Source: an uncultured Bacillota bacterium (GTDB taxonomy: Bacteria; Sysuimicrobiota; Sysuimicrobiia; Sysuimicrobiales; Segetimicrobiaceae). Taken from it: 64,000 bases of DNA. The stretch's first letter is position 1, and the number at the start of each line of letters is the position of its first letter. Shown here piece after piece: positions 32,370 to 61,479 of this stretch. Where the stretch lies: positions 96,001 to 160,000 of the forward strand of contig CAWDRG010000004.1 in the NCBI GenBank assembly GCA_963804645.1, written 5' to 3'. The translations under genes and the position numbers were made by a program. Below the pieces are notes generated by a model. The model had not been told where the DNA came from. It saw only the letters and a program-made list of their open reading frames with translations, and ran no database searches.

Positions 32370-33797
32370 ATGCGCGGGGACACCGATCGACCCTCGTTTC
32401 GCCGGCTCCCGTCCGTTGAGCGGCTGCTGCAGCGCCTCGCGGCGTCGGGGACGGCCGACCGCCATCCACGACAACTGGTCGTCGCGTGCGTGCGCGAGGT
32501 GGTGGAGCGCGCCCGCCGGCGCCTTCGTGAGGGCCGGACGACGCTCGAGGCCCTGAGCCTCGAGGCGCTCGCGGCCGACGCGCAGGCGCTCCTCGTCGAG
32601 TGGTCGGCGCCGAGCCTGGACCGGGCCGTCAATGCCACCGGCATCATCATCCATACGAACCTCGGCCGGGCGCCGCTGTCGGATGCGGCGCGCGCCGCGC
32701 TCGACGCCGCGTCGGGATACACGCCGCTCGAGGTGGACCGTGCGACCGGCGACCGCGGCTCCCGTCAGGCGCACGTCGGGGAGCTGCTGCGCCAGCTGAC
32801 CGGGGCGGACGCCGCGCTCGTCGTGAACAACAACGCCGGCGCGGTCCTGCTGGCGCTGGCCGCGCTCGCGCGCGGCCGCCAGACGATCATCTCCCGGGGC
32901 GAGCTGGTGGAGATCGGCGGCAGCTTTCGGATGCCGGATGTGATGGCCGCGAGCGGCTGCCAGCTCGTCGAGGTCGGGACGACGAACAAGACGTACCTCG
33001 CCGACTATGAAGCCGCCCTGACCCCGGAGACCGCGCTGCTCGTCAAGGTGCACCGCAGCAACTTCTCGATGCGGGGCTTCGTGCACGACGTGTCGCCGCG
33101 CGAGCTCGCCGTCCTCGGGCAGCGGGCCGGCGTGCCGGTGCTGTTTGACATGGGCAGCGGCGCGTTCGTCGACCTCACCGCGTGCGGTCTTCCTCCCGAG
33201 CCCACGGTGCAGGCGGCCGTGGCGTCCGGCGTGGATCTCGTGACCGCGAGCGGCGATAAGCTGCTCGGCGGGCCTCAGGCGGGCCTGCTCCTCGGGCGGG
33301 CCGAGGCGATCGCCCGGATCGCGGCGCACCCGCTCGCCCGCGCGCTGCGGATCGACAAGCTCGATCTCGCCGCGCTCGAGGCTACCCTTCGCGCCTACCG
33401 GGATCCCGCGCGCGCCTGGGCGGAGATCCCGGTGCTCGAAATGCTCGCGCGCCCGGTCGACGGGCTCGAGCGGGCCGCCGCTGAACTGCTCCCGCGCCTC
33501 GCCGAGGCGGTCGGCGACGCCGCCGATCTGGCGCTGTGCCGGACGGTGACCGAGGCGGGCGGCGGGGCCCTTCCCGGGGTCGAGCTGCCGTCGTGGGCCG
33601 TCTCGGTGGCGCCGCGTCGCGGCGGGGTCGAGGCATGGGAGCGTGCACTTCGCCGGCACCGGCCTCCGGTGTTCGGGCGGATCGCAGACGGCCACCTGCT
33701 CCTCGACTGCCGGACGCTGCGTCCCGAGGACCGCGAGCCGCTCGTCACCGCGCTCGCCGCGGCCGCGCGGGCCACCGACACGGCCGAGCGCGCGTAG
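32370..33797 (+). CDS. selA: L-seryl-tRNA(Sec) selenium transferase
   Basis: [42 protein letters not shown]. Confidence 0.97.
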
Positions 33798-33815: not shown

Positions 33816-35759
33816 GTGGCGCACCTTCCGGCTCCGGCCCGACCCCGCGCCGCCCGGTACACGGTCGTCGGCACCGCCGGGCACATCGACCACGGGAAGA
33901 GCGCGCTCGTGAAGGCGCTCACGGGGACCGATCCCGACCGCCTGAAGGAAGAGCGCCGGCGGGGCATGACGATTGACCTGGGGTTCGCCCACCTGGACCT
34001 GCCAAGCGGGTTGCGCGTCGGGGTCGTCGACGTTCCGGGCCATGAGCGGCTGATCAAGACCATGCTCGCCGGCGCGGCCGGCATCGACCTCGTGCTGTTT
34101 GTCGTCGCGGCCGACGAGGGAATCATGCCGCAGACCCGCGAGCACCTCGACATTCTTCGGTTCCTCCCGGTTGACCGCGGCCTTGTCGTCCTGACCAAGA
34201 TGGACCTGGTCACGGATCCCGAGTGGCTGGCCCTCGTCCGCGAGGATGTGACCGCCCTCGTCGCCGGCTCGTTCCTCGAGCGCGCGCCCGTGATCCCCGT
34301 GTCCGCCCGCACCGGGGAGGGGATCCCGGCGCTCGTGGAGGCGCTCGACCGCGCCCTTCGCGATCTCGCCGCGCCGGACGCGGACGCCCCGGCGCGCCTG
34401 CCAGTGGATCGCAGCTTCACGATGGCGGGATTCGGGACGGTCGTGACCGGGACGCTGTGGACCGGGCGGATACACGCGGGTGACGCGCTCGTCCTGCTGC
34501 CGGAGGGGCGGGAGGTGCGGGTGCGGCAGGTCCAGAGCCACGGGGAGGTCGTCGACGAGGCGCGCGCCGGGCAACGCGCCGCGCTGAATCTCGTCGGGGT
34601 GGCCAAGGACGAGGTCGAGCGCGGCGATGTGCTCGTCGCCCCCGGGACGTACCGGTCGTCCCGTGTGCTCGATGTCCGCCTGCGGATGCTCGGATCAGCT
34701 CCGCCGCTCCGCCACCAGGATCGGATCCGGTTCTACCTCGGCGCGGCGGAGGTGATCGGCCGGATCCGTCTGCTCGACCGCGACCGGCTCGCTCCGGGGG
34801 AGGAGGCAGTCGCACAGGTGCGCCTCGAGCACGAGACCGTGGCGGCGCGCGGCGACGCGTTTGTCATCCGGCGGTACTCGCCGATGGTGACCATCGGCGG
34901 CGGCGAGGTGATCGGCGCGGACGTCCCGCTGCGGCGGCGCGGGCGCGCGACCGTCGAACTCCTGAAGTCCGACGCGGCGTCCGATCTGGACGCGCGGGTC
35001 CTGGCTGTCGTCGAGGCCTCGGGGACCGCCGGCACGACGGTGGAGGCCGTCGCGCCGCCACTCGGACTCGTGCGCGACCGCGCGGTCGAGCTGATGCGTG
35101 TCCTCGTGGAGCGCGGCCAGGTGCGGAGCGTCCGGGGCCGGGTCTTTGCGGCCAATGCCGTCGAGGGCGTCGGCCGGGCCGTGGCCGCGACACTCGCGGG
35201 GTATCACTGCGAAGTGCCGTGGCGGGTCGGCATGCCCCGCGACGAGCTCAAGCGGCGCGCGTTTCCCGCGGGCGACGACCGGCTGTACGGCGATGTGCTG
35301 GAGCGCCTGGCTGCCGCGGGGGAGGTCGTGTTGGAGGGGACGTTCGCGCGGGCACGGGAGTTTGCGCCGGTGCGGACGGCCGAGGAGACCGCGGCCGTCG
35401 AGCGTCTTGACGCGCTGTACCGGCGCGCGCGGTTCACGACGCCGAGCCGTGAGGAGGCGCTCGCCCAAGTCGGCGACCGGAGCGTGGCCGGGCGCATGCT
35501 GCAGGTCCTGCTCGACGAGGGCCGCCTAGTGGATCTGGGCAGCGATATGCTGTTCCACCGCGACGCGGTCGCGGAGGCCGAGATGCTCATCGGCCGGCAG
35601 ATCGAGGCGCACGGGCCGATCACCGTCGCGACGGCTCGGGATCTCATGGCGAGCACCCGGAAGTACGTACTCGCGGTACTCGAGCATCTGGACGCGCGGC
35701 ACGTCACACGCCGCGTCGGTGACACGCGGGTCCTGCTGCGGCAACCCGGCCCGCGGTAA
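33816..35759 (+). CDS. selB: selenocysteine-specific elongation factor
   Basis: [28 protein letters not shown]-terminal winged helix STRKY..LEHLD...TRR.GD. Confidence 0.97.
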
Positions 35760-35858
35760 TGCGACGGCAGGCCGACCGGGATCGGGTGGCGAATGTCCGG
35801 GAACGACCTGTTGGCGGAGTGCCGCGGCGTCGATCGACTCACGAGGTAGGTGGCTCGG

Positions 35859-36419
35859 ATGGCTCAAGCGCATACGGAACGGAGCTTCGCCTCGGCCGAG
35901 ACGCGGTCGGAGCGATGGAGCCGGCTCGTCGCGGAGACGCTGCTGCACCACCGCGTTCATATGATCGGGTACGTGCCGGATGAGGTCAGCGGGCACCTCC
36001 TGGAGCGGCTGCACGCGGATCCGACCAGCACCGTCGTGTGTTATACGCGCGAGGAAGAAGCGGTCGCCGCCGTGGCCGGGGCGTTTCTCGGCGGGAAGCG
36101 CGGCGCGGTCGTGCTGCAGACGAGCGGGCTCGGCAACTCGCTGAACGTGCTTGGGTCGTTCGTCGTCCCGTATCAGATTCCGATGCTGCTCATCGTGAGC
36201 GAGCGCGGCGGGCTGGGCGAGTTTAACCCGGCGCAGGTGCCGTTCGGGCACGCCGTGCCGCGGGTGCTGGACGCGCTCGGCATCCAGACGTTCGCGCTCC
36301 AGTCGGAAGAGGAGATCGCCCCGGTGCTCTCCGGCGCCGCGGAACTCGCGTTCTCGACGCGGATGCCGGTCGCCGTAGTCCTGACGATGCTGCTCACGGG
36401 AGGCAAGACACTCAAATGA
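35859..36419 (+). CDS. TPP-dependent decarboxylase alpha subunit (sulfopyruvate decarboxylase ComD-like)
   Basis: YVPD, TREEEAV, LQTSGLGN.LN, SERG..GE.NPAQ. Confidence 0.8.
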   Translation: MAQAHTERSFASAETRSERWSRLVAETLLHHRVHMIGYVPDEVSGHLLERLHADPTSTVVCYTREEEAVAAVAGAFLGGKRGAVVLQTSGLGNSLNVLGSFVVPYQIPMLLIVSERGGLGEFNPAQVPFGHAVPRVLDALGIQTFALQSEEEIAPVLSGAAELAFSTRMPVAVVLTMLLTGGKTLK

Positions 36420-36985
36420 ACCGGTTGGAGGCGATCCGGCGCATCGTGCCCCACCTTGGGAATGCCGCGGTGATTTCCAACCTGGGGCGGAATACCTACG
36501 ATCTCTATGCGGCGGCGCAGGACCGGCCGGAGAATTTCTACATGTGGGGCGCCATGGGGTCCGCCGCCTCGGTGGGGTTTGGCTTGGCGCTCGCCCAGCC
36601 CGACCGACGGGTCGTCGTGCTCGACGGCGATGGGTCGCTCTTGATGAACCTGGGGTGCCTCGCGACGATCGCGGTCAACCGGCCGTCCAACCTCGTGGTC
36701 GTGGTGTTCGACAACGGCGCCTACGAGACGACCGGAGGGCAGGCGACGCACACCGCGCACGGGGTGAATCTTGAAGCGATCGCCCGCGGCGCCGGGATTA
36801 CCGGGGCCGCGACCGTCGCAGACCTTGACGGGTTTGCCCGAGCGGTCGAGCGCGGTCTTCGCGAGTGCGGGCCGTGGGTCATCGTCGCCAAAGTGGGCCA
36901 GGCGAAGGAGTTTGTTCGGGTGCCGCGGCGGCCGATTTACGTGAAGGACCAGTTTATGCAGGCGCTCGGTACGGTCGACCTGTAG
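36416..36985 (+). CDS. TPP-dependent decarboxylase beta subunit (ComE-like)
   Basis: NFYM.G.MG, DGDGSLLMN...DN TPP motif, TGGQ; ATGA overlap with the alpha gene. Confidence 0.85.
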   Translation: MNRLEAIRRIVPHLGNAAVISNLGRNTYDLYAAAQDRPENFYMWGAMGSAASVGFGLALAQPDRRVVVLDGDGSLLMNLGCLATIAVNRPSNLVVVVFDNGAYETTGGQATHTAHGVNLEAIARGAGITGAATVADLDGFARAVERGLRECGPWVIVAKVGQAKEFVRVPRRPIYVKDQFMQALGTVDL

Positions 36986-37017
36986 CCGAGGCGCGACCGG
37001 CCGCGGCGAGGGCACGC

Positions 37018-37061
37018 GGAGGGGAATGGGTCCTGGTGGGCTTCGCGGTCTTCAAAACTGT
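37018..37061 (+). tRNA. selC: tRNA-Sec (selC), 5' half only (truncated or interrupted)
   Basis: GGAGGGGA acceptor strand, 6-bp D stem GGGTCC/GGGCTT with TGGT loop, anticodon arm GCGGT-CT-TCA-AA-ACTGT. No T arm or 3' acceptor strand follows. Confidence 0.85.
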
Positions 37062-37151
37062 CCGCCCGCAGCGCCGTGCATCACGAGATCACGCTCTGAA
37101 CCGTGTAATACAAGGCTTTGCGCGTATCTACGAACGATGGTTCGCGTTGGC

Positions 37152-37179
37152 TGCACTTGAATTGCACTCATTTTGCACT
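37152..37179 (+). repeat. three TGCACT direct repeats at 11-bp period (integrase arm-type-like sites)
   Basis: TGCACT at 37152, 37163 and 37174 in an AT-rich patch. Confidence 0.7.
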
Positions 37180-37210
37180 TGTTCGCCGCCTAGAAGAGCA
37201 GCAAGCGACT

Positions 37211-37262
37211 CCGCGTGTCCGGTGGTGGGGGGGCAGCGGGGCGACCCCGCTCCCTACTCGAT
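37211..37262 (+). ncRNA. group II intron 3'-end remnant (class C-like DV 3' half plus DVI)
   Basis: CCGCGTGTCCGGTGGTGGGGG..AGCGGGGCGACCCCGCT.CCTACTCGAT, the typical IIC terminus ending in AT. Confidence 0.6.
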
Positions 37263-37472
37263 AAGCGGAAATCCGGTCTCATCGTGTACGTCTGTCCTCG
37301 GCCTCGTGAGATGGCCCCGAACGCGCGAGACGGCCGACGCGATCGACGGGCGAAGAAGCGGAAGGAGATGACGCGGGGTGGACGGCCGCGGATGCCGCGC
37401 CCCGCGGGCGCTGGAGTGATTCGCCATTGTGTGCGGGGGTAGGGACGCGGATACACATGGGGGGTGATCGGC

Positions 37473-46991: not shown

Positions 46992-49055
46992 GTGTCGTTT
47001 GAACGAGACGGGTGCCGGATCGCGGTCGACGTGGGAGGTACGTTCACCGATCTCGTCCTGGCACGCGATCGGACCGGAGAAATCCACATCGCGAAGGTGC
47101 GGACCACGCCCGCGGATCCCGCCGAGGGGCTGATCCTCGGCGTGCGGCGCCTGCTCGCGGAGGCGCACGCGGATCCCCGCGACGTCACGCACCTGCTGTT
47201 CGCCAGCACCGTCGCGACCAACGCGGTGCTGCAGTTGAGCGGTGCCCGGATCGGCCTGCTCGTGACGAAGGGGTTCCGGCACATCCTTGAGATCGGCCGC
47301 GCGAACATCCCGGGGCGTCTCACGAACGAACTGACCTACCGACGCCCGGAGCGGCTGGTCCCGTTGGAGCGCATCCAAGAGGTCGATGAGCGCTGCCTCG
47401 CGGACGGGAGTGTCCTCCGGCCGCTGGACGAACGCGCGGCACGCGATGCCATCCGCGCGCTCGTGGTTGCGGACGTGGAGTGCATCGCCGTCTCGCTCCT
47501 CCACTCGTACGTCAATCCCGTCCACGAGCGACGGATCCGCGACCTCGCAGCAGAGCTCGCGCCGCACACGCCGGTAACGCTCTCGTCCGACGTCCTCCCA
47601 GAGTACCGTGAGTACGAGCGTACGATGACGACGGTGCTGAACGCGTATGTGATGCCAGTGATGGCACGTGCCGTGCGCGGCATCGAGTGGCGGCTCCGAG
47701 AGGACGGGCTCGCGCCCGCGCTTGCAGTCGTGCGCTCCGACGGTGGGCTCATGAGCGCGGACGCCGTCGTGCGCCAGCCCGTCAATACCGTGCTGTCGGG
47801 CCCCGCCGCCGGCGTCGGTGGCGCCGCGTTCGTCGCGCGGCTCGCGGGATACCCGAACGCGATCTCGCTCGACATGGGCGGCACGTCGACGGACGTGTCG
47901 CTCGCGGCCGGCGGGACGGCGCGCCTCCGCGCCGAGGCGTCGGTCGGGGAGTACCCGGTCAAGGTGCCGATCACGGACGTCGTGACGATCGGCGCTGGCG
48001 GCGGGTCGATCGCCCACGTGTCGTCGACGGGCGCGCTGCACGTGGGACCGCGCAGCGCGGGGGCGGAACCCGGTCCGGTCTGCTACGACCGGGGCGGCAC
48101 CGAGGTGACGGTAACGGACGCGAACTTGGTGCTTGGGCGCCTCCCCGTGTCGCTCGTCGACGGGACAGTGGCGCTGAACATCGATCGCGCCCACGCCGCG
48201 CTCGCCGCGCTCGCCCGACGCATCGGGATGGATCCCGTGGCCTGCGCTGCGGGGATCCTCCGCATCGCGAACGAGAAGATGCTCGGGGCGCTCCGGGTCG
48301 TCTCGGTGCAGCGCGGCTACGATCCCCGCGATTTCGTCCTGCTCCCGTTCGGCGGGGCGGGCCCGATGCACTCCGGCGATCTCTGCCGCCTACTCGGGAT
48401 CCGCACGGCGGTGATCCCCGCGTCGCCCGGGGTGCTGTCCGCGATGGGGGCCATGGTCTCGGACATCGCGTGCGTGTTCGGCCGGACGCGCATCGAGGCG
48501 GCGGCGCAGCTCACCTTCGATGAGGTCAACGATGTGCTGGCCGCGCTTGCGACCGAGGCCCGGACGTGGCTCGACGCCGAGCGGGTGCCGCCTAGGGATC
48601 AGGCGCTCCTCTCGACCGCGGACCTGCGGTATATCGGGCAGGCGAGCGAAGTCGCCGTGTCCGTGACGACGCCGCTGACGCCCGAGGCGTTGGCGACCGC
48701 GCTGGAGGCATTTCACGCCGAGCACCGGCGCCTCTACGGGTTCGACTGGCGCGCTCAGGTGCCGGTCGAGATGGTCGCACTCAAGGTCACCGGCCGCGGG
48801 CGTGTGGCGCCGCCGCGCCCCGCGGTGCCGGACCGGGAGGCCGGGGAAGCCGAGGCGGCGCGGACCGGGACCCAGTCCGTGTACTTCGATGGCGGCTTCG
48901 TGGAGACGCCGTGGTACCAGCGACGCCGGCTTGCGCCGGGCGCGTCCGTCGCGGGACCGGCGGTCGTCGAGCAACTAGACGCGACCACGGTGATCCTGCC
49001 CGGGCAGGTCGCGCGCGTCGACCGGCACCTCAATCTCATCGTGGAGGAGCGCTAG
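46992..49055 (+). CDS. hydantoinase/5-oxoprolinase A-type subunit
   Basis: DVGGTFTD, STVATNA, SGPAAG, DMGGTSTD, GAGGGS, FGGAG.MH. Confidence 0.93.
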   Translation: MSFERDGCRIAVDVGGTFTDLVLARDRTGEIHIAKVRTTPADPAEGLILGVRRLLAEAHADPRDVTHLLFASTVATNAVLQLSGARIGLLVTKGFRHILEIGRANIPGRLTNELTYRRPERLVPLERIQEVDERCLADGSVLRPLDERAARDAIRALVVADVECIAVSLLHSYVNPVHERRIRDLAAELAPHTPVTLSSDVLPEYREYERTMTTVLNAYVMPVMARAVRGIEWRLREDGLAPALAVVRSDGGLMSADAVVRQPVNTVLSGPAAGVGGAAFVARLAGYPNAISLDMGGTSTDVSLAAGGTARLRAEASVGEYPVKVPITDVVTIGAGGGSIAHVSSTGALHVGPRSAGAEPGPVCYDRGGTEVTVTDANLVLGRLPVSLVDGTVALNIDRAHAALAALARRIGMDPVACAAGILRIANEKMLGALRVVSVQRGYDPRDFVLLPFGGAGPMHSGDLCRLLGIRTAVIPASPGVLSAMGAMVSDIACVFGRTRIEAAAQLTFDEVNDVLAALATEARTWLDAERVPPRDQALLSTADLRYIGQASEVAVSVTTPLTPEALATALEAFHAEHRRLYGFDWRAQVPVEMVALKVTGRGRVAPPRPAVPDREAGEAEAARTGTQSVYFDGGFVETPWYQRRRLAPGASVAGPAVVEQLDATTVILPGQVARVDRHLNLIVEER

Positions 49056-49059
49056 GGCG

Positions 49060-50886
49060 ATGGTGGACCCGATAACCCTGGAGGTCGTGGACAACGCCCT
49101 CTATTCCATGGAAAAGGAGATGGAGGCGACGATCGTCCGGACGGCGATGTCGATCGTCATCCGGGATATCTACGATTTCGGCGTCGCCACCTTCGATGCG
49201 TCGGGGCGCCTGGTCCACGGGTTGCCGATGTCGGGTACGCTCATCCGGGAGGTGTTCCCGCTCGAGCGGATCTTCGAGGGCGACGTCTTCCTGTTCAACG
49301 ACCCCTACTTGTCGCGGGGCGAGATGACCCACCTCGGGGACACGCAGCTGTCCCGGCCGGTCTTCGCGCAGGGGAAGCTCATCGCGTTCGCCGCGGTCTG
49401 GGGGCATCAGATGGACATCGGCGGCATCTCCGTGTCCGGCCTTCCGGCGACCTCACGCGAGATCTTTCACGAAGGGCTCCAGATTCCTCCGATCAAGCTC
49501 TACGAGCGTAACGTGCTGAACGAGGCGGTGCTGCAGATCATGGCCCGCAACTCGCGAACGCCTGAGATGATGATCGGGGATACGCTCGCGCTGGCGGCGG
49601 CGTGCACGATCACCGAGAAGCGCCTGTACGAGCTGATCGCGAAGTTCGGCGTGGACGTGATTCTGGAGTGCTTCAGCGTGTACGCCGATCGCGCGCGGGG
49701 GGCGATGCGCCGGCTGATCGCGGGCATGCCCGCGGGGCGCGTGGAGTTTGAGGACTATCTGGACGACGACGGCGTCCGTGAAGGGCCGGTGCGCCTGCGC
49801 GCCGCCCTCGAGAAGCGCGGCGACCGGCTGCACCTCGATTACTCAGGCACATCGGGCCAGGTCGAGGGTGCGATCAACCTGATTTTGAATCCCAACCGCA
49901 TCAAGCTTGAGATGTGGCGGTATCTGATCAACTGGGTGGGGCCGACGATCGGGATGGACGCCGAGGAGAGCCCGAACCACGGCATCTTCGACGAAATCGA
50001 CGTGACGATTCCCCATCCCAGTCTCCTCTCGCCGGCGTATCCGGCCGCGGTCGGGGCGCGCCACCTGACCGCCTCGCCCATTTACCGCGACGTGTTCCGG
50101 GGCGTGATGAGCCAGCTCTTTCCGGGACGGGTCCCGGCGTGCAGCAATGGGGTCATCCCAACCTACATGTTTCGCGGCGTGCACCCGGTGACGGGCAAAC
50201 TGTATGTGTCGATGGAGTGCATCGCCGGCGGCGGGGGCGGGCGCCCGGACGCCGACGGGCTGGACGCGCTGTGTCCCAATGCGAACCTGATCATCGCGCC
50301 CGCGGAGTTCCTGGAAACCACCTACCCGCTGCTCGTGGAAGAGACCGCGCTCCGGCGGGACACGGCCGGCCCGGGCCGCTTTCGCGGCGGTGCGGGGATC
50401 GTCAGATCGTTTGAGCTGCGCGCCCCTGAAGCCTATCTGTCATGGCTTGACGAACGTCAAACACATCCGGCGTGGGGGTTGCACGGCGGACGGCCGGGGG
50501 TGCCGGGGGACGCGTATCTGGTCCGCGCCGGGCGCACGTTCCGGCTGCCGACCAAGCACGACAACTTGCGCCTCGAGCTGGGCGATCGGATCGTCGTGCG
50601 CACGGGCGGTGGGGGTGGGTTCGGGCCGCCGTGGGAGCGTGCCGCCGGCCTCGTCGCCAGGGATGTGCTGCGCGGGTTCGTATCGGTCGGACAGGCACGG
50701 GCGGAGTACGGCGTTGTGCTCGGTGGACACCTGCCTACCGTGGACGCGGAGGGGACAGACGCACTCCGGCGCACGATGGCGGCCCGACCCTGGGCAGACG
50801 TCGACCGCGGTGTCGTCCGCACTGGGCCACCGCCCGGCCGTCTCGTGGAGGTTGGCGGCATCCCCGATGTGCCGGCCGTCCCGTGA
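49060..50886 (+). CDS. hydantoinase B/oxoprolinase subunit
   Basis: DPITLEV, NDPY...H..D, H..DIGG, EG.QIPP, G.GR.RGG.G, GGGG.G. Confidence 0.92.
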   Translation: MVDPITLEVVDNALYSMEKEMEATIVRTAMSIVIRDIYDFGVATFDASGRLVHGLPMSGTLIREVFPLERIFEGDVFLFNDPYLSRGEMTHLGDTQLSRPVFAQGKLIAFAAVWGHQMDIGGISVSGLPATSREIFHEGLQIPPIKLYERNVLNEAVLQIMARNSRTPEMMIGDTLALAAACTITEKRLYELIAKFGVDVILECFSVYADRARGAMRRLIAGMPAGRVEFEDYLDDDGVREGPVRLRAALEKRGDRLHLDYSGTSGQVEGAINLILNPNRIKLEMWRYLINWVGPTIGMDAEESPNHGIFDEIDVTIPHPSLLSPAYPAAVGARHLTASPIYRDVFRGVMSQLFPGRVPACSNGVIPTYMFRGVHPVTGKLYVSMECIAGGGGGRPDADGLDALCPNANLIIAPAEFLETTYPLLVEETALRRDTAGPGRFRGGAGIVRSFELRAPEAYLSWLDERQTHPAWGLHGGRPGVPGDAYLVRAGRTFRLPTKHDNLRLELGDRIVVRTGGGGGFGPPWERAAGLVARDVLRGFVSVGQARAEYGVVLGGHLPTVDAEGTDALRRTMAARPWADVDRGVVRTGPPPGRLVEVGGIPDVPAVP

Positions 50887-51032
50887 CGGTGCTCCCCGGG
50901 ACCGTCGTGGTCCGGACGGGCGAGGCTCGGATCCGTCCCGCCTAGGAGTTGCCTTCAAGCCCGTGGAATAAGCGGCCCCCAAGGGGTCGTCCGTCCGGTC
51001 GGCCACGGTTATCGCGCAGGGGAGGACATCCA

Positions 51033-52643
51033 ATGCGATTTGTTCGGGCCGGGCTCGTGTGTGGAGTGGTGCTTACGTTTGCGCTGATCAGTTTGCTCCC
51101 GCTCTCGTCTCTCGGCGCCGCCAGCGACGCGAACCAGACGCTCGTGGTGGCGGTTTCCCGCGACATGCAGAACCTCGACCCGACGAACGCTTCCTCGGAT
51201 CCCTTTACGCTCGAGACCCTGACCAACATCTACGCGTGGCTGATCGACTTCAAACTCGTCAAGCAGGCGGATGGCGAGACGATCGGCTCCCCGAACGAGT
51301 TCGTCGGCGGGCTCGCGCAATCGTTCCAGTTCACAGATGGCGGCCGGAAGTTGATGGTGACGCTCCGTTCGAATCTCAAGTTCAGCGACGGCGACCCGCT
51401 GGACGCGAACGCCGTGAAGTTCACGTACGACCGGCTGTTCGATCAGAACGCGACGACCGCGGCGCTCTCCCGCATGGCGAAGATCATGAACAAGGACTCG
51501 GTCAAGGTGATCGACGCCCGGACGGTGGAATTCGACATCAGCGACCCGAACACGCTCGTGCTCGGCAACATGGCCCAGTACGGCCATTCGATCCTGAATC
51601 CGAACGTCGTTCGGCCCCACATGACCGCGGCCGACCCCTACGCGCATCAGTGGCTGCAGTCCAACACCAAGGGGACCGAGTCGGGTCCCTACGTGCTCGC
51701 GTCGTGGCAGCCGGGCGTCGAGTTCGTGTTCGCGCGGAACCCCTACTACTGGGGTCCGCCGGCGAGGATCGCGCGCGTCGTGTTCCGCATCGTGCCGGAT
51801 CCGTCGACCCGCCTTACCCTGCTCAAGAGTGGCGATGTCGATATCGCCCGGGATTTGGCGCCGCTTGACGAGGTAGAGCTTCTGCACGACGCCTCGGTCA
51901 CGGTGCACCGATTCCCGACGCGCATCACCTCGTATCTCGGGATGAATGCCAAGACCGCGCCCTTCGACAATCCCAAGGTGCGCCAGGCGATCTCGTGGGC
52001 AGTGCCGTACAACACGATCATTCACAACGTCATGGTGGGGTTTGCACGGCAGCTGACGAGCCCGGTGCCCGCAGGGATGCCGACCCACACCGATCAGTAC
52101 TTCCACTACCGGACCGATCCCGCGAAGGCCAAGCAGCTGCTGGCGGAGGCCGGATACCCGAACGGGCTCGGCGTCACGTTTACCTCGCGGGCCGACCTCG
52201 CGGAATCCCAAGGCATCGCGGTGTGGCTGAAGAGCGCCTTGGCGACGGCCGGGATCACCGTGACGATCGATGAGATGCAGGGTGCCGCGTTCACGGCCGC
52301 CCTGCAGCGGCATGATCTGGCGTTCTTCCACCAGCCCGGGTGGAACTCGATCAACAACGACCCGTTTTACCACCTGTACTGGTTGTTGCAGAGCGACTGC
52401 TGCGACTACACGAACTACCACAACGCGACCGTGGACGAGCTGATCACCAAGAACATCATCTCGACCGATCTGAAGGCGCGCGACGCGGCGTCCCACCAGA
52501 TTCAGCAGATCGCGATCGATGACGCCGCGTGGATCTTCCTCTACCAGCCGGACTTGGTGCTGGCCACCGGCAAGAACATCGGTGGCGTGATCCTGTACCC
52601 GGCCGACTACCGGTTCCGGTACTACTATATGACCAAGGAGTGA
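51033..52643 (+). CDS. ABC transporter substrate-binding protein (family 5)
   Basis: Signal peptide, NLDP, FSDG, SGPY, PFDN.KVRQA. Confidence 0.92.
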   Translation: MRFVRAGLVCGVVLTFALISLLPLSSLGAASDANQTLVVAVSRDMQNLDPTNASSDPFTLETLTNIYAWLIDFKLVKQADGETIGSPNEFVGGLAQSFQFTDGGRKLMVTLRSNLKFSDGDPLDANAVKFTYDRLFDQNATTAALSRMAKIMNKDSVKVIDARTVEFDISDPNTLVLGNMAQYGHSILNPNVVRPHMTAADPYAHQWLQSNTKGTESGPYVLASWQPGVEFVFARNPYYWGPPARIARVVFRIVPDPSTRLTLLKSGDVDIARDLAPLDEVELLHDASVTVHRFPTRITSYLGMNAKTAPFDNPKVRQAISWAVPYNTIIHNVMVGFARQLTSPVPAGMPTHTDQYFHYRTDPAKAKQLLAEAGYPNGLGVTFTSRADLAESQGIAVWLKSALATAGITVTIDEMQGAAFTAALQRHDLAFFHQPGWNSINNDPFYHLYWLLQSDCCDYTNYHNATVDELITKNIISTDLKARDAASHQIQQIAIDDAAWIFLYQPDLVLATGKNIGGVILYPADYRFRYYYMTKE

Positions 52644-52685
52644 CGGCGCCTCACGCGTCCGCTCCGGCTCGTCGTTCGACGCCTC

Positions 52686-53666
52686 ATGCTCGCGGTCCCC
52701 GTGCTCCTCGGGGTCACGCTGATCACGTTTGTCCTGACGCGTGTCCTCCCGGGTAGCCCGATCGACGCGATCGCCGGGCCGATGGCGACGCCGGCGCAGC
52801 GGCAGGCGCTGCTGGTGCAGTACGGCCTGAACCGCCCGCTGTGGGTTCAGTACGTCGCCTATCTCGGCGGCCTCGCGCACGGCGACCTCGGTAGTTCGTT
52901 CGTCACGAGCCATCCGGTCGCGTCCGACCTTGCCGCGTTCTTCCCGGCCACGATGGAGTTGACGACGTGGGCGATCATCGTGGCCGTCCTCGTCGGCGTG
53001 CCCCTCGGCGTGTGGGGAGCCGTGCGCCAGGGGTCATGGATCGATCACCTCACGCGCGTGCTCTCCGTCGCCGGCGTCGGACTCCCCGTGTTCTGGGTGA
53101 GCCTGGTGTTGATCTACCTGTGTTTTTATCGCTGGCACCTGGTGCCGCCCCCGATGGGGCGCCTCAGCCCCGAAATCACTCCCCCGCCGTCCGTCACCGG
53201 CTTCCTCGTGATCGACACGGCGCTCGCGGGTGACTGGCGCGCGTTCAGCGACGCGGTCCGGCAGCTGATCCTGCCGGTGGCCGTGCTGGCGTTCGCCGCC
53301 GTCGCGCCGCTCGCCCGGATGACGCGGACCAGCATGCTCGACGTGCTCGGGAGCGCGCACACGCGCGCCACGCGCGCGCTCGGGCTCCCGCCGCGCAGCG
53401 TCGTCTGGACGTACGCGTTCCGCAACGCGATCCTGCCCGTGCTCACGATGCTCGCGATCGTCTACGGCTTCCTGCTGGGGGGCTCCGTGCTCGTCGAGAC
53501 GCTGTTCGCGTGGCCGGGGATGGGCCGGTACGCGTTCAACGCGATCAGCGGCAACGACTACCCGGCCGTGCAGGGCTTCATCTTATACGCCACGGGCGTG
53601 TACCTCGCGATCTTTGTCGCGGTCGACGTCGTTTCGGCGCTGCTGGATCCCCGGATCGAGACATGA
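52686..53666 (+). CDS. ABC transporter permease (DppB-like)
   Basis: GDLG.S, PAT.EL, ETLFAWPG.G; true start may be slightly upstream. Confidence 0.92.
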   Translation: MLAVPVLLGVTLITFVLTRVLPGSPIDAIAGPMATPAQRQALLVQYGLNRPLWVQYVAYLGGLAHGDLGSSFVTSHPVASDLAAFFPATMELTTWAIIVAVLVGVPLGVWGAVRQGSWIDHLTRVLSVAGVGLPVFWVSLVLIYLCFYRWHLVPPPMGRLSPEITPPPSVTGFLVIDTALAGDWRAFSDAVRQLILPVAVLAFAAVAPLARMTRTSMLDVLGSAHTRATRALGLPPRSVVWTYAFRNAILPVLTMLAIVYGFLLGGSVLVETLFAWPGMGRYAFNAISGNDYPAVQGFILYATGVYLAIFVAVDVVSALLDPRIET

Positions 53667-54529
53667 GCGCGTCCAGCGAGGCGCGGGCGCACCCCCCACT
53701 CGGCGACGCCGTCTACCTGCTGCGCCGGAACCCGATCACGCTCGCCGGGATCGCGCTCATCGCGCTGATCGCACTCGCGGGCGTCGCGGCGCCGCTCATC
53801 GCGCCGGCGTCGCCGCTCGCCACGGATCCCTCGGCCGCGTTCCAGCCACCCAGCGTGCGCCACCTGATGGGGACCGACGAGTTTGGAGAGGACATCTGGT
53901 CGCGCGTGCTGTGGGGGGCCCGGGTCGATCTCACCATCGCGTTCGGCGCGGTGGCGATCGCGCTCGTCCTGGGTTGTGCGCTCGGGGCCGCTGCGGGGTT
54001 CTCGGGCCGCTGGACCGACGAGCTCGTCATGCGCGGGATGGACGTGCTGCAGGCGTTTCCCTCGTTCATCCTCGCGATGGGGATCGCCGCCGCGCTCGGG
54101 CCGAGCCTCCGCAACCTGATCATCTCCGTGGCGCTGATCAACGTCGCGGTGTACGCGCGGTTGATGCGCACGCGCCTCCTCGTCGTCAAGCAGGCGCTGT
54201 ACGCGACGGCGGCCCGGGGCGCCGGCAACCCCCCGTGGCGGGTGCTCGTGGTGCACCTGATCCCGAACTGTCTCACCCCGATCTTCGTGCAGTCGAGCTT
54301 GCAGTCCGGCTACGCGATTCTGACCGCGGCCGGGCTGTCCTTCATCGGGTTGGGCGTGCGGGTGCCCACGCCCGAGTGGGGCGTCATGGTGGCGATGGGC
54401 GTCGCCCGCATCACCATCGGCGCGTGGTGGGTGTCGTTCTTCCCGGGGATGTGCATCGGGCTCGCGGTGATGGCGTTCAACCTGATCGGCGACGGTCTCT
54501 CCGACCTGCTCGATCCCCAGCGGCGGTGA
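53663..54529 (+). CDS. ABC transporter permease (DppC-like)
   Basis: HLMGTD.FG.D, LSFIGLG, PEWG, GD.L.D.LDP. Confidence 0.92.
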   Translation: MSASSEARAHPPLGDAVYLLRRNPITLAGIALIALIALAGVAAPLIAPASPLATDPSAAFQPPSVRHLMGTDEFGEDIWSRVLWGARVDLTIAFGAVAIALVLGCALGAAAGFSGRWTDELVMRGMDVLQAFPSFILAMGIAAALGPSLRNLIISVALINVAVYARLMRTRLLVVKQALYATAARGAGNPPWRVLVVHLIPNCLTPIFVQSSLQSGYAILTAAGLSFIGLGVRVPTPEWGVMVAMGVARITIGAWWVSFFPGMCIGLAVMAFNLIGDGLSDLLDPQRR

Positions 54530-54532
54530 TCC

Positions 54533-55495
54533 GTGCTGACGGTCGACGCTCTGCGGGTGACGTTGCGGACGCGGCAGGGCGCTGTGCCGGCGCTGCACGG
54601 GGTCACCATGACCCTTGCGGAGGGTGCGGTGACGGGGCTGGTCGGGGAAAGCGGATGCGGGAAGACGCTTACCGCGCTCGCGATCATGCGCCTGCTGCCC
54701 GCGCCCGGGGAGATCTCCGGCGGGCACGTGTGGCTCGACGGCCGCGATCTGCTGACCCTTCCCGATCGGGCGATGGATCGCGTGCGCGGCGCCGAGATCG
54801 CGATGATCTTCCAGCAGCCGCGCGCCTCGCTCAATCCGGTGTTCCCGATCGCGTTCCAGCTCATCCACGTGCTGCGTCTGCACCGCGGGCTCTCGGCGCG
54901 CGCCGCGCGGGCCGAGGGCGAAGCGCTGCTGGCCCGTGTCGGCCTGCCCCGGCCCGACGCCGTGATGCGCGCGTATCCGCACCACCTGTCCGGGGGCATG
55001 TGCCAGCGGGTGATGATCGCGCTGGCGCTTGCGTGCCGATCACGGGTGCTCGTGGCGGACGAGCCCACGACCGCGCTCGATGTCACGGTCCAGTTGCAGA
55101 TCGTCGATCTGTTGCGCGGGTTGCAGCGTGAGCTCGGGCTCACCATCCTGCTGATCACGCACGACCTCGGGCTCGTCGCGGAGATGTGCGACCATGTCAA
55201 CGTGATGTACGCCGGGCGCATCGTCGAATCCGCACCCGTATCCCGGCTGTTTCGGCGGCCGGCGCATCCGTATACGCGGGGACTGATGGCGTCTCGGGTG
55301 CGCACCGGCAGCCGCGCGCTGCCGGTCGGCATTCCGGGACGGGTGCCGGAGCTCGCCCAGATGCCGACGGGGTGCCCGTTCCATCCCCGCTGTCCCTTGG
55401 TCGGCCCGGAGTGCGTGGAGCGGGACGCCGTCCCGGAACTGGTCGAGGACGGGCATGTCGTTCGGTGTCACCGCTGGCGGAGCGGAGCGGCGTAG
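54533..55495 (+). CDS. ABC transporter ATP-binding protein (DppD-like)
   Basis: GESGCGKT, LSGGM.QR, ADEPTTALD, HPYT, CPFHPRC. Confidence 0.95.
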   Translation: MLTVDALRVTLRTRQGAVPALHGVTMTLAEGAVTGLVGESGCGKTLTALAIMRLLPAPGEISGGHVWLDGRDLLTLPDRAMDRVRGAEIAMIFQQPRASLNPVFPIAFQLIHVLRLHRGLSARAARAEGEALLARVGLPRPDAVMRAYPHHLSGGMCQRVMIALALACRSRVLVADEPTTALDVTVQLQIVDLLRGLQRELGLTILLITHDLGLVAEMCDHVNVMYAGRIVESAPVSRLFRRPAHPYTRGLMASRVRTGSRALPVGIPGRVPELAQMPTGCPFHPRCPLVGPECVERDAVPELVEDGHVVRCHRWRSGAA

Positions 55496-56500
55496 GTGCT
55501 GCGGGTTGACGGCCTCGTCAAGCTGTACCCGGCGCGTGCGGCGGTTGGTCGCAGAGCGTCCGTGCTGCACGCCGTCGATCGTGTCGACCTGGAGATCGCG
55601 CCCGGGGAGACGCTCGGTTTGGTGGGCGAGTCGGGGAGTGGCAAGTCGACCACCGGGCGTTGCATTCTGCGGCTCGAGGAGCCCACCGCGGGCGAGGTGG
55701 TCCTGGACGGAACGTCGGTGACGCACGCCGCCTCCAGGCCGCTTCGCGCGCTGCGGCGCAGGATGCAGATGGTCTACCAGGACCCGCTCGATTCCCTTAA
55801 CCCCCGCATGCCCGTGGGCCGTCAAATCGCCGAGCCGATCTGGCTGTTCGGCCTCGCGCCGCGGCGGGGCGTCGAGCGCCGGGTCGCCGAGCTGCTCGGC
55901 CTCGTCGGCCTGTCGGCGGACGTGGCCCATCGGTATCCACACCAACTGTCGGGGGGGCAGCAGCAGCGCGTCGCGATCGCCCGCGCGCTCGCCCCCGAGC
56001 CGAACCTGCTGGTGCTCGACGAGCCAACGGCGTCACTGGACGTCTCCGTCCAGGCGCAGATCGTCCAGTTGCTGGCCGAGATCCAATCGCGCCGCGGTCT
56101 GGCGTATCTGCTGATCTCGCACGACCTGCCGCTTGTCAGCGTGCTTGCGCACCGCGTCGCCGTGATGTACCTGGGACAGATCGTCGAGGTCGCGACGGTA
56201 GAGGAGATCTTCCGGGCGCCCGCGCACCCGTACACGCGCGCGCTGCTGAGCGCCACCCCGAAGGACACGCCGGAACAGGACAAAGCCCGCATCCTGCTGC
56301 GCGGCGAGCCGACCTCGGCGATCGATCCGCCCGACACGTGCCGCCTCCATCCGCGCTGCCCGTTCGCCGCGGCGTCGTGTCTCGCCCGCCCGGCCGCGCT
56401 CGGCACCTACGCGCCGGGCCGGGCGGTCCGCTGCGTCCGCTTTCTCGACGAGCATCGGGACGGCGCGTGGGCGCCGACGCCGACCGTCCCCCCGGTCTAG
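55496..56500 (+). CDS. ABC transporter ATP-binding protein (DppF-like)
   Basis: GESGSGKST, LSGGQQQR, LDEP, HPYT. Confidence 0.95.
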   Translation: MLRVDGLVKLYPARAAVGRRASVLHAVDRVDLEIAPGETLGLVGESGSGKSTTGRCILRLEEPTAGEVVLDGTSVTHAASRPLRALRRRMQMVYQDPLDSLNPRMPVGRQIAEPIWLFGLAPRRGVERRVAELLGLVGLSADVAHRYPHQLSGGQQQRVAIARALAPEPNLLVLDEPTASLDVSVQAQIVQLLAEIQSRRGLAYLLISHDLPLVSVLAHRVAVMYLGQIVEVATVEEIFRAPAHPYTRALLSATPKDTPEQDKARILLRGEPTSAIDPPDTCRLHPRCPFAAASCLARPAALGTYAPGRAVRCVRFLDEHRDGAWAPTPTVPPV

Positions 56501-56892
56501 CGAGTCCCCGCGCCCAGGCGTTCGGGCCGCGCCCGCCCACGCGACCGGCCCCCGGGAGCGGTTCGGCCGCGCGCGTAATCAGATCGTGCACGTACCTGCA
56601 AGCGCACACCGCCGGGAGGTGCATCGATGCGCTGTCGTCCGTCCTCGAGTTTGTGACCGAACAGGCGCCGCTCCTCACGGAGTTGCGTGACCGCCTCTGG
56701 GACATGCCGGGTCAGAAGTCCGCAGGTAGTCGCCGCGGGATCGTCCACGCCGCCGCGCGCTGCGGCCGATCGGGACCGGACGCGGGAGGGCCTGACGGCT
56801 CGGCGGCGAACGAAACCGTGCGACCGGCTTCCCCTCCAGGCGGGGTCCCGCTGCTCTGCCGGACCGCCACCCCAGCGTACGTAGGGGGCGTC

Positions 56893-59019
56893 ATGTCGAC
56901 GGCTCCATATCGGATCGGACTGGACATCGGCGGCACGTTCACGGATCTCGTGCTGATCCATCCGTCCGGGACCCTGCGCGGCCACAAGATCCTCACGACA
57001 CCGCACGACCCTGCCGACGGGGCGCTGCGCGGCGTGCGCGAGCTGTGCGCGGCCGCCGGCATCACGCTCGGGGACGTCGGCGTCGTCATCCACGCCACCA
57101 CGCTCGTGACCAACGCGATCATCGAGCGTACCGGGGCGCGCACGGCGATGCTGTGTACCGACGGCTTCCGCGACATCTTGGAGATGGGCCGCGAGCAGCG
57201 CTACGATATCTACGACTTGTTTCTCCCGTACCCGGAGCCGGCGGCGCCCCGCCGCTGGCGCGTCGAAGTGCGCGAGCGCATCACCCGGGACGGCGACGTG
57301 CGCGTCCCGCTCGACCTGGACGGCCTCAGGACACAGGTGTCCCGGCTGGTCGCGCAGGGGGTCGAGGCGATCGCGGTGTGCTTCCTGCACGCCTACAAGA
57401 ATCCCGCGCACGAGCGCGCCGCGAAGGCGCTGATCGAGGCGGAGTTCCCGGACATTGCGGTGTCGATCAGCAGCGAGGTCAGCCCCGAAATCCGCGAGTA
57501 CGAGCGCGCGACGACGACGGCCCTGAACGCGTACGTGCAGCCGCTGCTGGCCCGCTACCTGGCCCACCTCGAGACCGCGCTCGCCGCCGGCGGCTTCGCC
57601 GGACAGTTTCTGCTGATGCTCTCCTCCGGGACGCTCACGACGGTGGAGGTGGCGCGCCGCTTTCCGGTGCGGCTGCTGGAGTCCGGCCCGGCCGCGGGGG
57701 CGCTCGTCGCGGGCTACCTCGGGGCGCGGATCGGCCGCCCGGACCTCGTCGCGTTTGACATGGGGGGCACCACCGCCAAGATCTCGCTCGTGCAGGACGG
57801 GCGGCCGCGCATCACCCCGATGATCGAGGTCGCGCGCACGCACCGGTTCAAGCCGGGCTCGGGCCTCCCGGTGCGGTCCACCGTCGTCGACATGATCGAG
57901 ATCGGAGCGGGCGGCGGCTCGATCGCGGACGTGGGGACGCTCGGGCAGTTGCGTGTCGGGCCGCAGAGCGCCGGCGCGGATCCGGGTCCGGCCTGCTACC
58001 GGCTGGGGGGGACGAGGGCGACGGTCACCGACGCGTGCGTGGTGCTGGGCTACTTCGACCCGCAGGCGTTCCTCGGCGGTACCATGCCGCTCGATGCGAC
58101 GGCGGCGCGCGACGCGGTGGCGCGCGCGGGCGAGCCGCTCGGGCTGGACGTCGTCGGGACCGCGTGGGGCATGTTCTTGATCGTTTGCGAGAATATGGCG
58201 CAGGCGGCGCGGCTGTACCTGATCGAACGCGGGCAGGACCCGCGGCGGTTCGCCCTGATGGGATTCGGCGGGGCCGGCCCGGCGACCGCGGCGCGCGTGG
58301 GCCGGCTGCTCGGGATGTCGGAGGTGCTCATCCCTCCAGCCTCCGGCCTCGCGTCGGCCCTCGGCCTGCTGGTCGCGCCGCCCGGGTTCGACTTCGGCCA
58401 GTCGCTCGCCGGAGGCCTCGAGGACCTCGACTATCCGGCGGTGGAGGCCCTGCTGGCCGAGATGGAAACGCGGGGCCGGGAGATGGCGGTCGCGGCGGGC
58501 GCACCGCCGCACGCGATCCGCCAGGAGCGCCGCGCCGAGATGCGCTACGCGGGGCAGTTCCAGGACATCGAGATCCCGGTCCCCCGGCCGCTCGCTCAGG
58601 ACGCCGCGGCGCGGCTGAAGGCGAACTTTGACCGCGGCTACACAGCGTCGTATGGTCTGTCCCTCGAGGGATATCCGGTGGAGGCGCTGAACTGGCGGGT
58701 GCTCGTCATGGGCCCCGCGCCGAACGTGGACCTGCGCGCCGGCTTCGGGCCGAGCGGCGGCGCCGATGTCCCGAAGGGACGGCGGCGGATCTACCTGCCG
58801 GACACGCGGGAGTTCGCCGAGGTGCCAGTGTACGATCGCGCCCGGCTGCACGCCCGGAGTGCCGTGGACGGCCCCGTGATCGTCCAGGAGCCCGAGGCGA
58901 CGACCGTGGTGTGGCCGGGTGACCGGCTCACCGTCGACCCGCACGGAAATCTCGTCATTCGCATCGGCGGCACCGCCGGGGCTCCCCCGGGGGCGCCGGG
59001 ACCGGAGGCGCCTCGATGA
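56893..59019 (+). CDS. hydantoinase/5-oxoprolinase A-type subunit (second copy)
   Basis: DIGGTFTD, HATTL.TNA, ESGPAAG, DMGGTTAK, GAGGGS. Confidence 0.93.
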   Translation: MSTAPYRIGLDIGGTFTDLVLIHPSGTLRGHKILTTPHDPADGALRGVRELCAAAGITLGDVGVVIHATTLVTNAIIERTGARTAMLCTDGFRDILEMGREQRYDIYDLFLPYPEPAAPRRWRVEVRERITRDGDVRVPLDLDGLRTQVSRLVAQGVEAIAVCFLHAYKNPAHERAAKALIEAEFPDIAVSISSEVSPEIREYERATTTALNAYVQPLLARYLAHLETALAAGGFAGQFLLMLSSGTLTTVEVARRFPVRLLESGPAAGALVAGYLGARIGRPDLVAFDMGGTTAKISLVQDGRPRITPMIEVARTHRFKPGSGLPVRSTVVDMIEIGAGGGSIADVGTLGQLRVGPQSAGADPGPACYRLGGTRATVTDACVVLGYFDPQAFLGGTMPLDATAARDAVARAGEPLGLDVVGTAWGMFLIVCENMAQAARLYLIERGQDPRRFALMGFGGAGPATAARVGRLLGMSEVLIPPASGLASALGLLVAPPGFDFGQSLAGGLEDLDYPAVEALLAEMETRGREMAVAAGAPPHAIRQERRAEMRYAGQFQDIEIPVPRPLAQDAAARLKANFDRGYTASYGLSLEGYPVEALNWRVLVMGPAPNVDLRAGFGPSGGADVPKGRRRIYLPDTREFAEVPVYDRARLHARSAVDGPVIVQEPEATTVVWPGDRLTVDPHGNLVIRIGGTAGAPPGAPGPEAPR

Positions 59020-61380: not shown

Positions 61381-61479
61381 CATCCGCGAGCACGGTTGCG
61401 GACCTTACGACACGCGAAAACCAGCCAAGGTTCGTCTCGTAAATCCGAAGCGTCGCTGCTGAACATCCGTGTTGTTGGT

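Follow-up and report, generated by a model that had tools for sequence, protein, structure and literature searches.

A displaced 5' half of the selenocysteine tRNA gene as the likely fragment end of a gene-restoring island in an uncultured Sysuimicrobiota bacterium

Background

In Escherichia coli and its relatives, selC, the gene for the selenocysteine (Sec) tRNA, is a hot spot for the integration of islands with P4-like integrases and variable cargo. These islands insert at the 3' end of selC, and their integrase lies downstream of the gene. A different outcome of integration is known from skin in sigK, an excisable element that gates its host gene, which is not restored while the element is inserted. 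Here we analyze a stretch of 64,000 nt (the window) from an uncultured Bacillota bacterium of the Segetimicrobiaceae (GTDB phylum Sysuimicrobiota; assembly GCA_963804645.1, here called G000), corresponding to positions 96001-160000 of its contig C4 (G000:C4:96001-160000), in which a selC gene breaks off just past its anticodon arm near selA and selB. The family of islands to which we attribute this break resembles the selC islands of E. coli in bearing an integrase, in targeting selC, and in its variable cargo. In contrast to them, its integrase lies upstream of selC in the same orientation, and the 5' 45 nt of the gene are duplicated. With skin in sigK, it shares the position of a mobile element inside a gene and a nonfunctional gene piece beside the native flank, but the selC family carries the missing part of the gene and leaves a complete copy at its other end.

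Islands that leave a 5' fragment of their target have been described before. Among 3919 islands in the Islander collection, 159 have a 5' fragment of a tRNA gene (tDNA) and 3760 have a 3' fragment (Hudson, Lau and Williams 2015, PMC4383910). The 5'-fragment class has, like the selC family, a tyrosine integrase, a piece of the target tDNA in attP (the attachment site of the element), and a gene that is restored on integration; in both, the tDNA and a co-oriented end fragment mark the ends of the island. The selC family differs from the Islander cases in its selC target, in its occurrence in an uncultured soil/peat lineage, and in the selC upstream spacer that the island carries. The 5'-fragment geometry is already known, and what the selC family adds to it is a flipped branch of integrases and an island-borne selC upstream region. 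A literature search turned up no selC island of the 5' type, which is no proof of its absence from print. Because only the fragment end is assembled in G000, its island would fail the integrase and tDNA filters of Islander.

The G000 assembly comprises 5.3 Mb in 22 contigs and is 96.8% complete. It was compared with a set of 41 related genomes and a class-wide set of 94 genomes (both totals include the unpublished genome G034), in which the relatives carry G numbers, and with three metagenome contigs (L126, L127, and L128) retrieved with a gapped pattern. Public runs that hold window DNA are labelled as peat metagenomes. Candidate tRNA-Sec genes were scored with the Rfam model RF01852, which has a gathering cut-off of 47 bits.

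Results and discussion

A 5' half of selC beside an island arm

We consider it likely that positions 37018-37062 of the window are the attL site, the junction at the native place of selC, of a gene-restoring selC island, the integrase-selC end of which is missing from the assembly. Three features make up this junction.

37018-37062 (+): displaced 5' fragment of tRNA-Sec, nt 1-45, on the core side of the putative attL; acceptor 5' strand, D arm, and UCA anticodon arm
37063-37190 (+): integrase-distal island arm of the att site, homologous to the DNA after the tRNA-Sec fragment in G002, G007, L126, L127, and L128
37150-37185 (+): three 11-nt TGCAC direct repeats, CTGCACTTGAA / TTGCACTCATT / TTGCACTTGTT, candidate arm-type protein-binding sites

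The fragment starts 32 nt past the stop codon of the second of two comDE-like thiamine pyrophosphate (TPP)-enzyme genes, which ends at 36985. Its letters are GGAGGGGA-AT-GGGTCC-TGGT-GGGCTT-C-GCGGT-CTTCAAA-ACTGT-C, and a direct reading gives an 8-nt acceptor 5' strand, a 6-bp D stem with a 4-nt TGGT loop, and a UCA anticodon arm, the same layout of arms as in nine intact tRNA-Sec genes from relatives. In a whole-genome comparison with blastn-short, the fragment is identical to the intact tRNA-Sec gene of G008 at 43 of 45 positions (E 2.4e-14). This resemblance to tRNA-Sec is far beyond chance, and the original prediction, which was made from the window alone, was right to see a clear selC 5' half with a UCA anticodon here. 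The same prediction described the 3' strand of the anticodon stem as degenerate. However, every base of ACTGT finds a partner in GCGGT, three by Watson-Crick and two by G-U pairing, and the working tRNA-Sec genes of relatives, which have GCAGT/ACTGT, carry the same 3' strand. The private bases of the fragment are A8, C24, T25, and G30. A search of the 41 related genomes showed the tRNA-Sec 5' part in many of them as well.

The likeness to intact genes ends with nt 45, where the variable arm would adjoin; the sequence on the 3' side is unrelated to the 3' halves of relatives, and it includes neither a T arm nor a matching 3' acceptor strand. ARAGORN identifies no tRNA gene in the window, and the Rfam tRNA-Sec score of the fragment (21.4 bits, E 0.28) is under the cut-off. 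Synteny with G001, G002, G003, G005, G006, G009, and G011 ends at about 36970-36987, shortly before the fragment. What follows it is an arm of about 130 nt that matches the post-fragment DNA of G002:C24 (locus L052), G007:C103 (locus L081), L126, L127, and L128, with a mean column identity of 74% in the six-way alignment that includes G000. A break just past the anticodon arm, with the same arm beside the fragment in relatives, bears out the proposal that selC was cut by an integrase-type element. The arm-like repeats that had been predicted after the fragment correspond to the three TGCAC-containing units, which are the best conserved block of the arm across all six aligned att sites and are candidate protein-binding sites. 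The joint pattern of anticodon loop, 85-115 nt, and repeat core occurs in 3 of the 94 class genomes (G000, G002, and G007), and a reversed-pattern control gave 0. The arm is single copy, with no second copy in the G000 assembly.

A scan of IMG/VR for the 17-nt repeat core gave four matches in unrelated AT-rich DNA without a nearby tRNA or integrase, which were rejected as chance. The repeat core (TTGCACTCATTTTGCAC) recurs at G015:C159 (L082 2843-2965), at a distance of about 50 nt from a tRNA- or transfer-messenger RNA (tmRNA)-like 3' end on the reverse strand (..TTCAAATCTCCCCCCCTCCGCCA), which scores only 14.6 bits with the tmRNA model. Possibly, a related island of the classical kind, with a 3' fragment, is present at this locus.

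Integrase-selC ends in relatives

Comparison of the locus in relatives brought out, beyond the arm, both the integrase-selC end of such islands and the stretch of tRNA that their two ends share. In G002, 55 nt separate the 3' end of the gene for a 398-aa tyrosine integrase (PF00589, PF14659) from an intact tRNA-Sec gene that lies downstream in the same orientation, and in G007 an integrase 64% identical to that of G002, cut by the contig end, lies 104 nt upstream of an intact tRNA-Sec gene; in both genomes, this end is on a contig other than that of the fragment. Remnants of the integrase precede selC in G014 (a frameshifted copy) and in G009 (a 60-aa piece), which brings the loci with an integrase or remnant to 4 of the 30 tRNA-Sec loci examined. 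The attL and attR sites of G002 have exactly tRNA nt 1-45 in common (45/45 nt) and nothing on either flank, and those of G007 have nt 1-43 in common. In L126, selB (62% identity over 627 aa) comes first, followed directly by the fragment and then by the arm. L127 (1264 nt) leads from an integrase C-terminus (62% identity) through a 75-nt spacer and tRNA nt 1-44 into the arm; it is an attP-type junction, which a free element or a tandem array could equally have provided. Because of this attP-type junction and of the integrase-selC ends and repeats in relatives, we take the element to bring its own selC 5' part.

The DNA upstream of selC was compared in the same way. Over the 130 nt before the gene, G014, G009, and G008 match the integrase end and spacer of G007 at 123/137, 116/137, and 99/137 positions, respectively, and the DNA upstream of the tRNA part in L127 does so at 90/138; between G002 and G006, the selC upstream DNA matches at 88/137 positions. 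Judged from these alignments, the selC upstream spacer travels with the island. G001, G002, G003, G005, G006, and G011 have a TGTAGTAGGAT-like motif 10-20 nt before selC. This motif, the one feature behind the idea of a promoter in the spacer, may be a promoter element; scans for sigma-70 and terminator consensus sequences around the fragment and the G002 integrase-selC spacer gave 0 sites each. In G001 and G006, selC is about 14 kb from the TPP-enzyme genes and no 5' fragment is left, and these loci look like old, decayed islands. With integrase remnants before selC in several relatives, selC appears to have been repeatedly overwritten by the island lineage in this bacterial family.

These arrangements can be joined into one mechanism. 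The attP of the island would consist of the integrase 3' end, the upstream spacer, tRNA-Sec nt 1-44/45, and then the TGCAC-repeat arm. The tyrosine integrase would recombine attP with selC within the 45 nt that they have in common, the anticodon loop being the probable place of exchange. The product at the native place (attL) would be made up of the host upstream genes, the old 5' fragment, and the arm, and the product at the other end of the island (attR) would be the integrase followed by a complete selC composed of the island 5' part and the chromosome 3' part. With a complete selC at attR, insertion of the island would not deprive the cell of a working gene, which would be available without excision. 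For this scheme we infer that G000 still has a rebuilt selC, where the crossover takes place, and that the repeats are targets of a protein. Rebuilding of selC at the far end of the element, in a 5'-fragment geometry, was one of two outcomes considered in the original prediction; it is seen in G002 and G007, and L127 shows the attP-type junction, but the far end of the G000 island is not in the assembly.

Homologues of the G002 integrase are present in 32 of the 94 class genomes, and 30 loci were examined for their arrangement.

16 of 30 loci: integrase 3' end convergent with a tRNA or tmRNA gene (classical 3'-end replacement)
2 of 30 loci: integrase co-directional with the tRNA 5' end, both at tRNA-Sec
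1 of 30 loci: one integrase of each orientation around a single tRNA-Ala (L113)
11 of 30 loci: integrase without a tRNA within 400 nt

The sister integrases of the same class, with tRNA-Val, other tRNAs, and tmRNA as targets, are 30-75% identical and have their 3' end at the att site, like the selC integrases. At 16 of the 30 loci the integrase is convergent with the target, whereas the co-directional arrangement is found only at the two tRNA-Sec loci and for one of the L113 integrases. Since the closest full-length homologue of the G002 integrase (58% identity) sits at tRNA-Val in the classical arrangement, the selC branch is a flipped variant of an ordinary tRNA-targeting clade. Within a clade that replaces 3' ends, this selC-specific branch would replace the 5' part of its target and bring the upstream spacer with it. 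At L113 (G028:C46), the tRNA-Ala gene (2490-2565) is flanked by two integrase homologues, of which one is convergent with it and the other co-directional; this may be another instance of integration on the 5' side.

The cargo beside attL varies from HORMA/AAA defence-like genes in G002 to a copper P-type ATPase in G007 and metabolic genes in G000. In G002:C24 (L052 9936-11827), a HORMA domain fused to an AAA ATPase is followed by a Cap17-like N-terminal piece; by their domains, these are predicted to be defence-like genes associated with a cyclic oligonucleotide-based antiphage signaling system (CBASS). The AMP-binding enzyme encoded next seems to be divided between reading frames. In G007:C103 (L081 422-3964), the cargo includes a copper-type P-type ATPase of 1180 aa that has HMA and cupredoxin domains.

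Selenocysteine genes and the search for a complete selC

Upstream of the fragment, the window holds the genes for Sec synthesis and insertion and two TPP-enzyme genes.

32370-33797 (+): selA, L-seryl-tRNA(Sec) selenium transferase, 475 aa (Pfam SelA 4e-140, profile 2-366 of 367; Se-cys_synth_N)
33816-35759 (+): selB, Sec-specific elongation factor, 647 aa (Pfam GTP_EFTU, Beta-barrel_SelB, SelB-wing_2, SelB-wing_3)
35850-36985 (+): two overlapping TPP-enzyme genes, encoding the N- and C-terminal TPP-binding halves, comDE-like (Pfam TPP_enzyme_N, TPP_enzyme_C)

On the evidence of their full-length frames, selA and selB are apparently intact, and the TPP-enzyme gene pair is the last block that is syntenic with relatives. 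G000 also keeps two genes with one in-frame TGA each: selD at C10:1957-2877 (-), with ..VACAG*ASKLSP.., and a gene for a formate-dehydrogenase-type molybdopterin enzyme at C17:799711-800982 (+), with ..SCNRT*HAPSV... We take these TGA positions to be the catalytic Sec/Cys sites of SelD and formate dehydrogenase (FdhF/FdhA). Since SelD carries a catalytic TGA, SelD itself depends on tRNA-Sec. Judged by its gene content, with selA and selB full length and a TGA in the genes for SelD and formate dehydrogenase, the organism still needs selC.

No complete gene was found in the assembly. ARAGORN identified 51 tRNAs and one tmRNA on all 22 contigs and no tRNA-Sec. The Rfam tRNA-Sec model gave 26 matches in the whole genome at E up to 10, of which only C9:195497 is above the cut-off (49.4 bits); it was rejected as a tRNA-Sec, ARAGORN assigning it to tRNA-Ser(tga), and the eight best Rfam loci of G000 are ordinary tRNAs only. 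A pattern for the complementary acceptor strand combined with a T-arm test gave six matches, none of them on C4 and none shown to be a tRNA 3' half. The 3' halves of eight relatives, compared with G000 by blastn-short, gave matches of 12-23 nt only, with E of at least 0.03; among these, a 15-nt match at C4:168338 was rejected for want of a T-arm or acceptor continuation. The exact 29-mer of the fragment had 0 matches in a metagenome scan. For comparison, tRNA-Sec matches of at least 65 bits are present in 36 of the 41 related genomes, and those without one are G000, G004 (65% complete), G025, G038, and G039. The earlier description of a native selC that is broken while selA and selB are apparently intact stands: the 5' fragment is all that the assembly holds of the gene, and the T arm and 3' acceptor strand are absent elsewhere in it as well as next to the fragment. 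The second copy of selC, or the 3' half with an integrase at a distal boundary, that might have completed this picture was found nowhere in the G000 assembly.

A half gene could also be one part of a working tRNA. In the fragment, the pairs of the D stem and the anticodon stem are all still allowed, as they would be in a non-canonical or split tRNA-Sec that receives its 3' half, as RNA, from another locus. However, no separately encoded 3' half was found in the 5.3 Mb; the best matches are 15-23 nt long, with E of at least 0.03, and the one on C4 lacks a T arm and acceptor. Further, the flank of the fragment is an island arm common to other att sites, and a split tRNA-Sec is exceedingly improbable.

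DNA to the right of the arm

Beyond the arm, the window first contains an intron remnant and then a block of genes that is patchy in relatives.

37205-37262 (+): probable 5'-truncated group II intron remnant (domain V 3' strand and domain VI), 86% identical to G022:C423
37464-47000 (no strand given): patchy cargo-like genes by Pfam (DAP_DH_C-type dehydrogenase, gamma-glutamyltranspeptidase, and parts of a peptide ABC transporter); island membership putative

The match of the remnant to G022:C423 extends over 55 nt (86%, E 3e-10), and the G022 stretch is an Rfam Intron_gpII (RF00029) with 44.6 bits at a cut-off of 40. Applied to window positions 37150-37300, Rfam gave no Intron_gpII match for the window piece itself, and the G000 assembly holds no other copies of this intron type. 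The possibility that 37063-37262 as a whole is a group II intron inside the tRNA gene was rejected, as there is no tRNA 3' half from 37263 onward and 37063-37190 is the att arm.

The gene for the DAP_DH_C dehydrogenase has DNA matches in only 2 of 22 relatives, at 85% and 82%, above the 72-80% of core synteny, and the gamma-glutamyltranspeptidase of the same block has a paralogue on C2. Further to the right, a hydantoinase/ABC-transporter block at 47.0-56.5 kb is syntenic with G002, G001, and G005, which belong to the same genus, at 76-79%. Of the roughly 27 kb of accessory DNA in the original prediction, the part from 37.4 to 47 kb agrees with that description, being patchy in relatives, but the syntenic block does not. 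No right boundary is identifiable, and the 27-kb extent is without any boundary support. The last 37 kb of C4, beyond the window, are mostly non-syntenic and contain insertion-sequence copies. There is no tyrosine integrase in the window or anywhere on C4; all 11 PF00589 matches in G000 are on other contigs, and the G002 integrase has only C-terminal partial matches of 49-74 aa in the genome. An attempt to place the far end through synteny with the selC flanks of G001, G002, G003, G006, G009, and G011 was abandoned, the flanks being mosaic and leading to scattered G000 contigs with no consistent site.

Contigs from metagenome runs at the junction

Four public runs contain 36-65% of the sampled words and were compared as k=31 contigs, which are unable to phase the 45-nt repeat; coverage gaps in single runs (for example, X4 37113-37415) were given no evidential weight. 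One contig each from X1 and X4 exits the window sequence after 37062 and continues with GGCGGGCCCTTGGGTTCGCGGTGCGTTCGA; this is the variable arm and T arm of a tRNA-Sec 3' half, similar to those of relatives. X1 record 4 (163 nt, 1 mismatch) crosses 37063 as assembled, with its left 35 nt inside the repeat, and X2 record 12 covers the arm end, the intron remnant, and downstream DNA with 0 mismatches. X4 record 28 (372 nt) links the TPP-enzyme gene to this tRNA in complete form, with 4 mismatches in 257 nt, the sole such link among the matches listed. A complete selC with this 5' part is thus present in the community, and the site is polymorphic. From the unique left flank to the unique right flank, the junction is spanned by 0 of the 32 contig pieces among the matches listed.

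That none of these 32 pieces joins the two unique flanks would fit an assembly misjoin through the 45-nt repeat, in which the selAB-TPP flank of an empty-site strain was connected to a piece with the 5' part and arm from attP or from another strain. The presence of at least two strains at the locus in the metagenome, seen in variant positions and in the passage of X4 record 28 from the TPP-enzyme gene to an intact tRNA, also fits a misjoin. However, the same join is present in independent assemblies, namely G002 (selA-selB-TPP, fragment, and arm on a 27-kb contig) and L126 (selB, fragment, and arm), and the host selC upstream region is the only sensible left partner for such an arm. Further, the DNA right of the arm is tiled by X1 and X2 contigs (records 4, 5, 6, and 12) and belongs to the genus. 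We regard a misjoin as quite unlikely.

The two junction forms in the same metagenome bear as well on the other outcome considered in the original prediction, an excision switch, in which selC is broken while the element is inserted and Sec decoding comes back only on excision, as in skin in sigK. Such a switch would also be consistent with intact selA and selB next to a selC that is present only as a 5' fragment in the assembly. Yet attP in this family carries selC nt 1-44/45 (L127) and a complete selC lies by the integrase (G002 and G007), which is the signature of gene restoration. SelD needs Sec, and a cell without selC would not easily be able to restart the pathway. The difference of X4 record 28 at 4 of 257 positions suggests strain polymorphism over excision. 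With a restoring 5' part in the family and run contigs that pass 37062 into the tRNA-Sec 3' half, gating of Sec decoding by excision is very unlikely.

Several observations weigh against the reading of 37018-37062 as the attL of a gene-restoring island. The G000 assembly has neither the 3' half, nor an intact selC, nor an integrase of the G002 type, and so the far end is one that we infer from relatives. C4 runs for 64 kb past the fragment without an integrase, and the block at 47.0-56.5 kb, with core-like identity to three genomes of the same genus, is unlike island cargo. The truncated group II intron lies within 15 nt of the arm end, and with such a remnant next to the arm the G000 island may be rearranged or broken. 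In addition, the runs are possibly the assembly's own source and in that case not independent, and the mismatches of X4 record 28 mean that it possibly derives from another strain with an empty site.

Some of these points would be expected if the island had decayed, that is, if a deletion or rearrangement by the arm had lost or separated the integrase-selC end, selC were truly lost, and the TGA-bearing selD and fdhA were freshly orphaned. An assembly that is 96.8% complete lacks an intact selC, a 3' half, and a cognate integrase, the 5'-truncated intron remnant lies directly past the arm, core-like synteny resumes 10 kb to the right, and islands do decay in relatives (remnants in G009 and G014; in G001 and G006, a 14-kb gap with no 5' fragment). 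However, the frames of selA, selB, SelD(Sec), and FdhA(Sec) are otherwise open and full length, which points to continuing selection, and the tRNA-Sec 3' half is joined to this 5' part in runs that hold window DNA. In addition, draft genomes frequently lack junctions of tRNA genes and integrases, and a true loss of selC is unlikely.

A bolder combination of these elements seems to us rather unlikely: that the selC of this lineage is largely island property (the 5' 45 nt, the spacer, and probably the promoter) and that the G000 island is broken at the intron scar, with its integrase-selC end unlinked or lost. If true, Sec decoding, and with it the Sec-dependent SelD, which makes the selenium donor, would rest on a gene copy that is mobile and may even be missing; in nature, a mobile element would have captured an essential recoding tRNA and afterwards endangered it. 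On the gene-restoring reading that we prefer, the half selC is most likely the fragment end of an island, the working-gene end having been dropped from the assembly. A half selC beside intact selA and selB in a draft genome is not to be read as loss or gating of Sec decoding.

Other features of the genome

Window positions 47017-60899 contain hydantoinase A/B genes in two pairs, both accompanied by genes for peptide-type ABC transporters; the first of these blocks is syntenic in the genus, and the second pair (about 56.9-60.3 kb) has matches of about 70% to other loci. They are followed by a fragment of an IS110-family transposase (61396-62001) and by a group II intron from 62191-62364 onward to 64000 (Rfam D1-D4-4, 67.5 bits), both of which have several copies of 75-86% identity elsewhere in G000. 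On other contigs, three tyrosine-recombinase matches within 6 kb near the contig start (C15:9628-15449) are possibly a recombinase-trio element, and at C22:22618-22715 (-) ARAGORN calls a tRNA of 98 nt, to which it assigns a four-base anticodon (ggcg) and no identity. In the relative G015, C159 also contains a cobalamin riboswitch (96.1 bits) on the minus strand (L082 796-1016), which is unrelated to selC.

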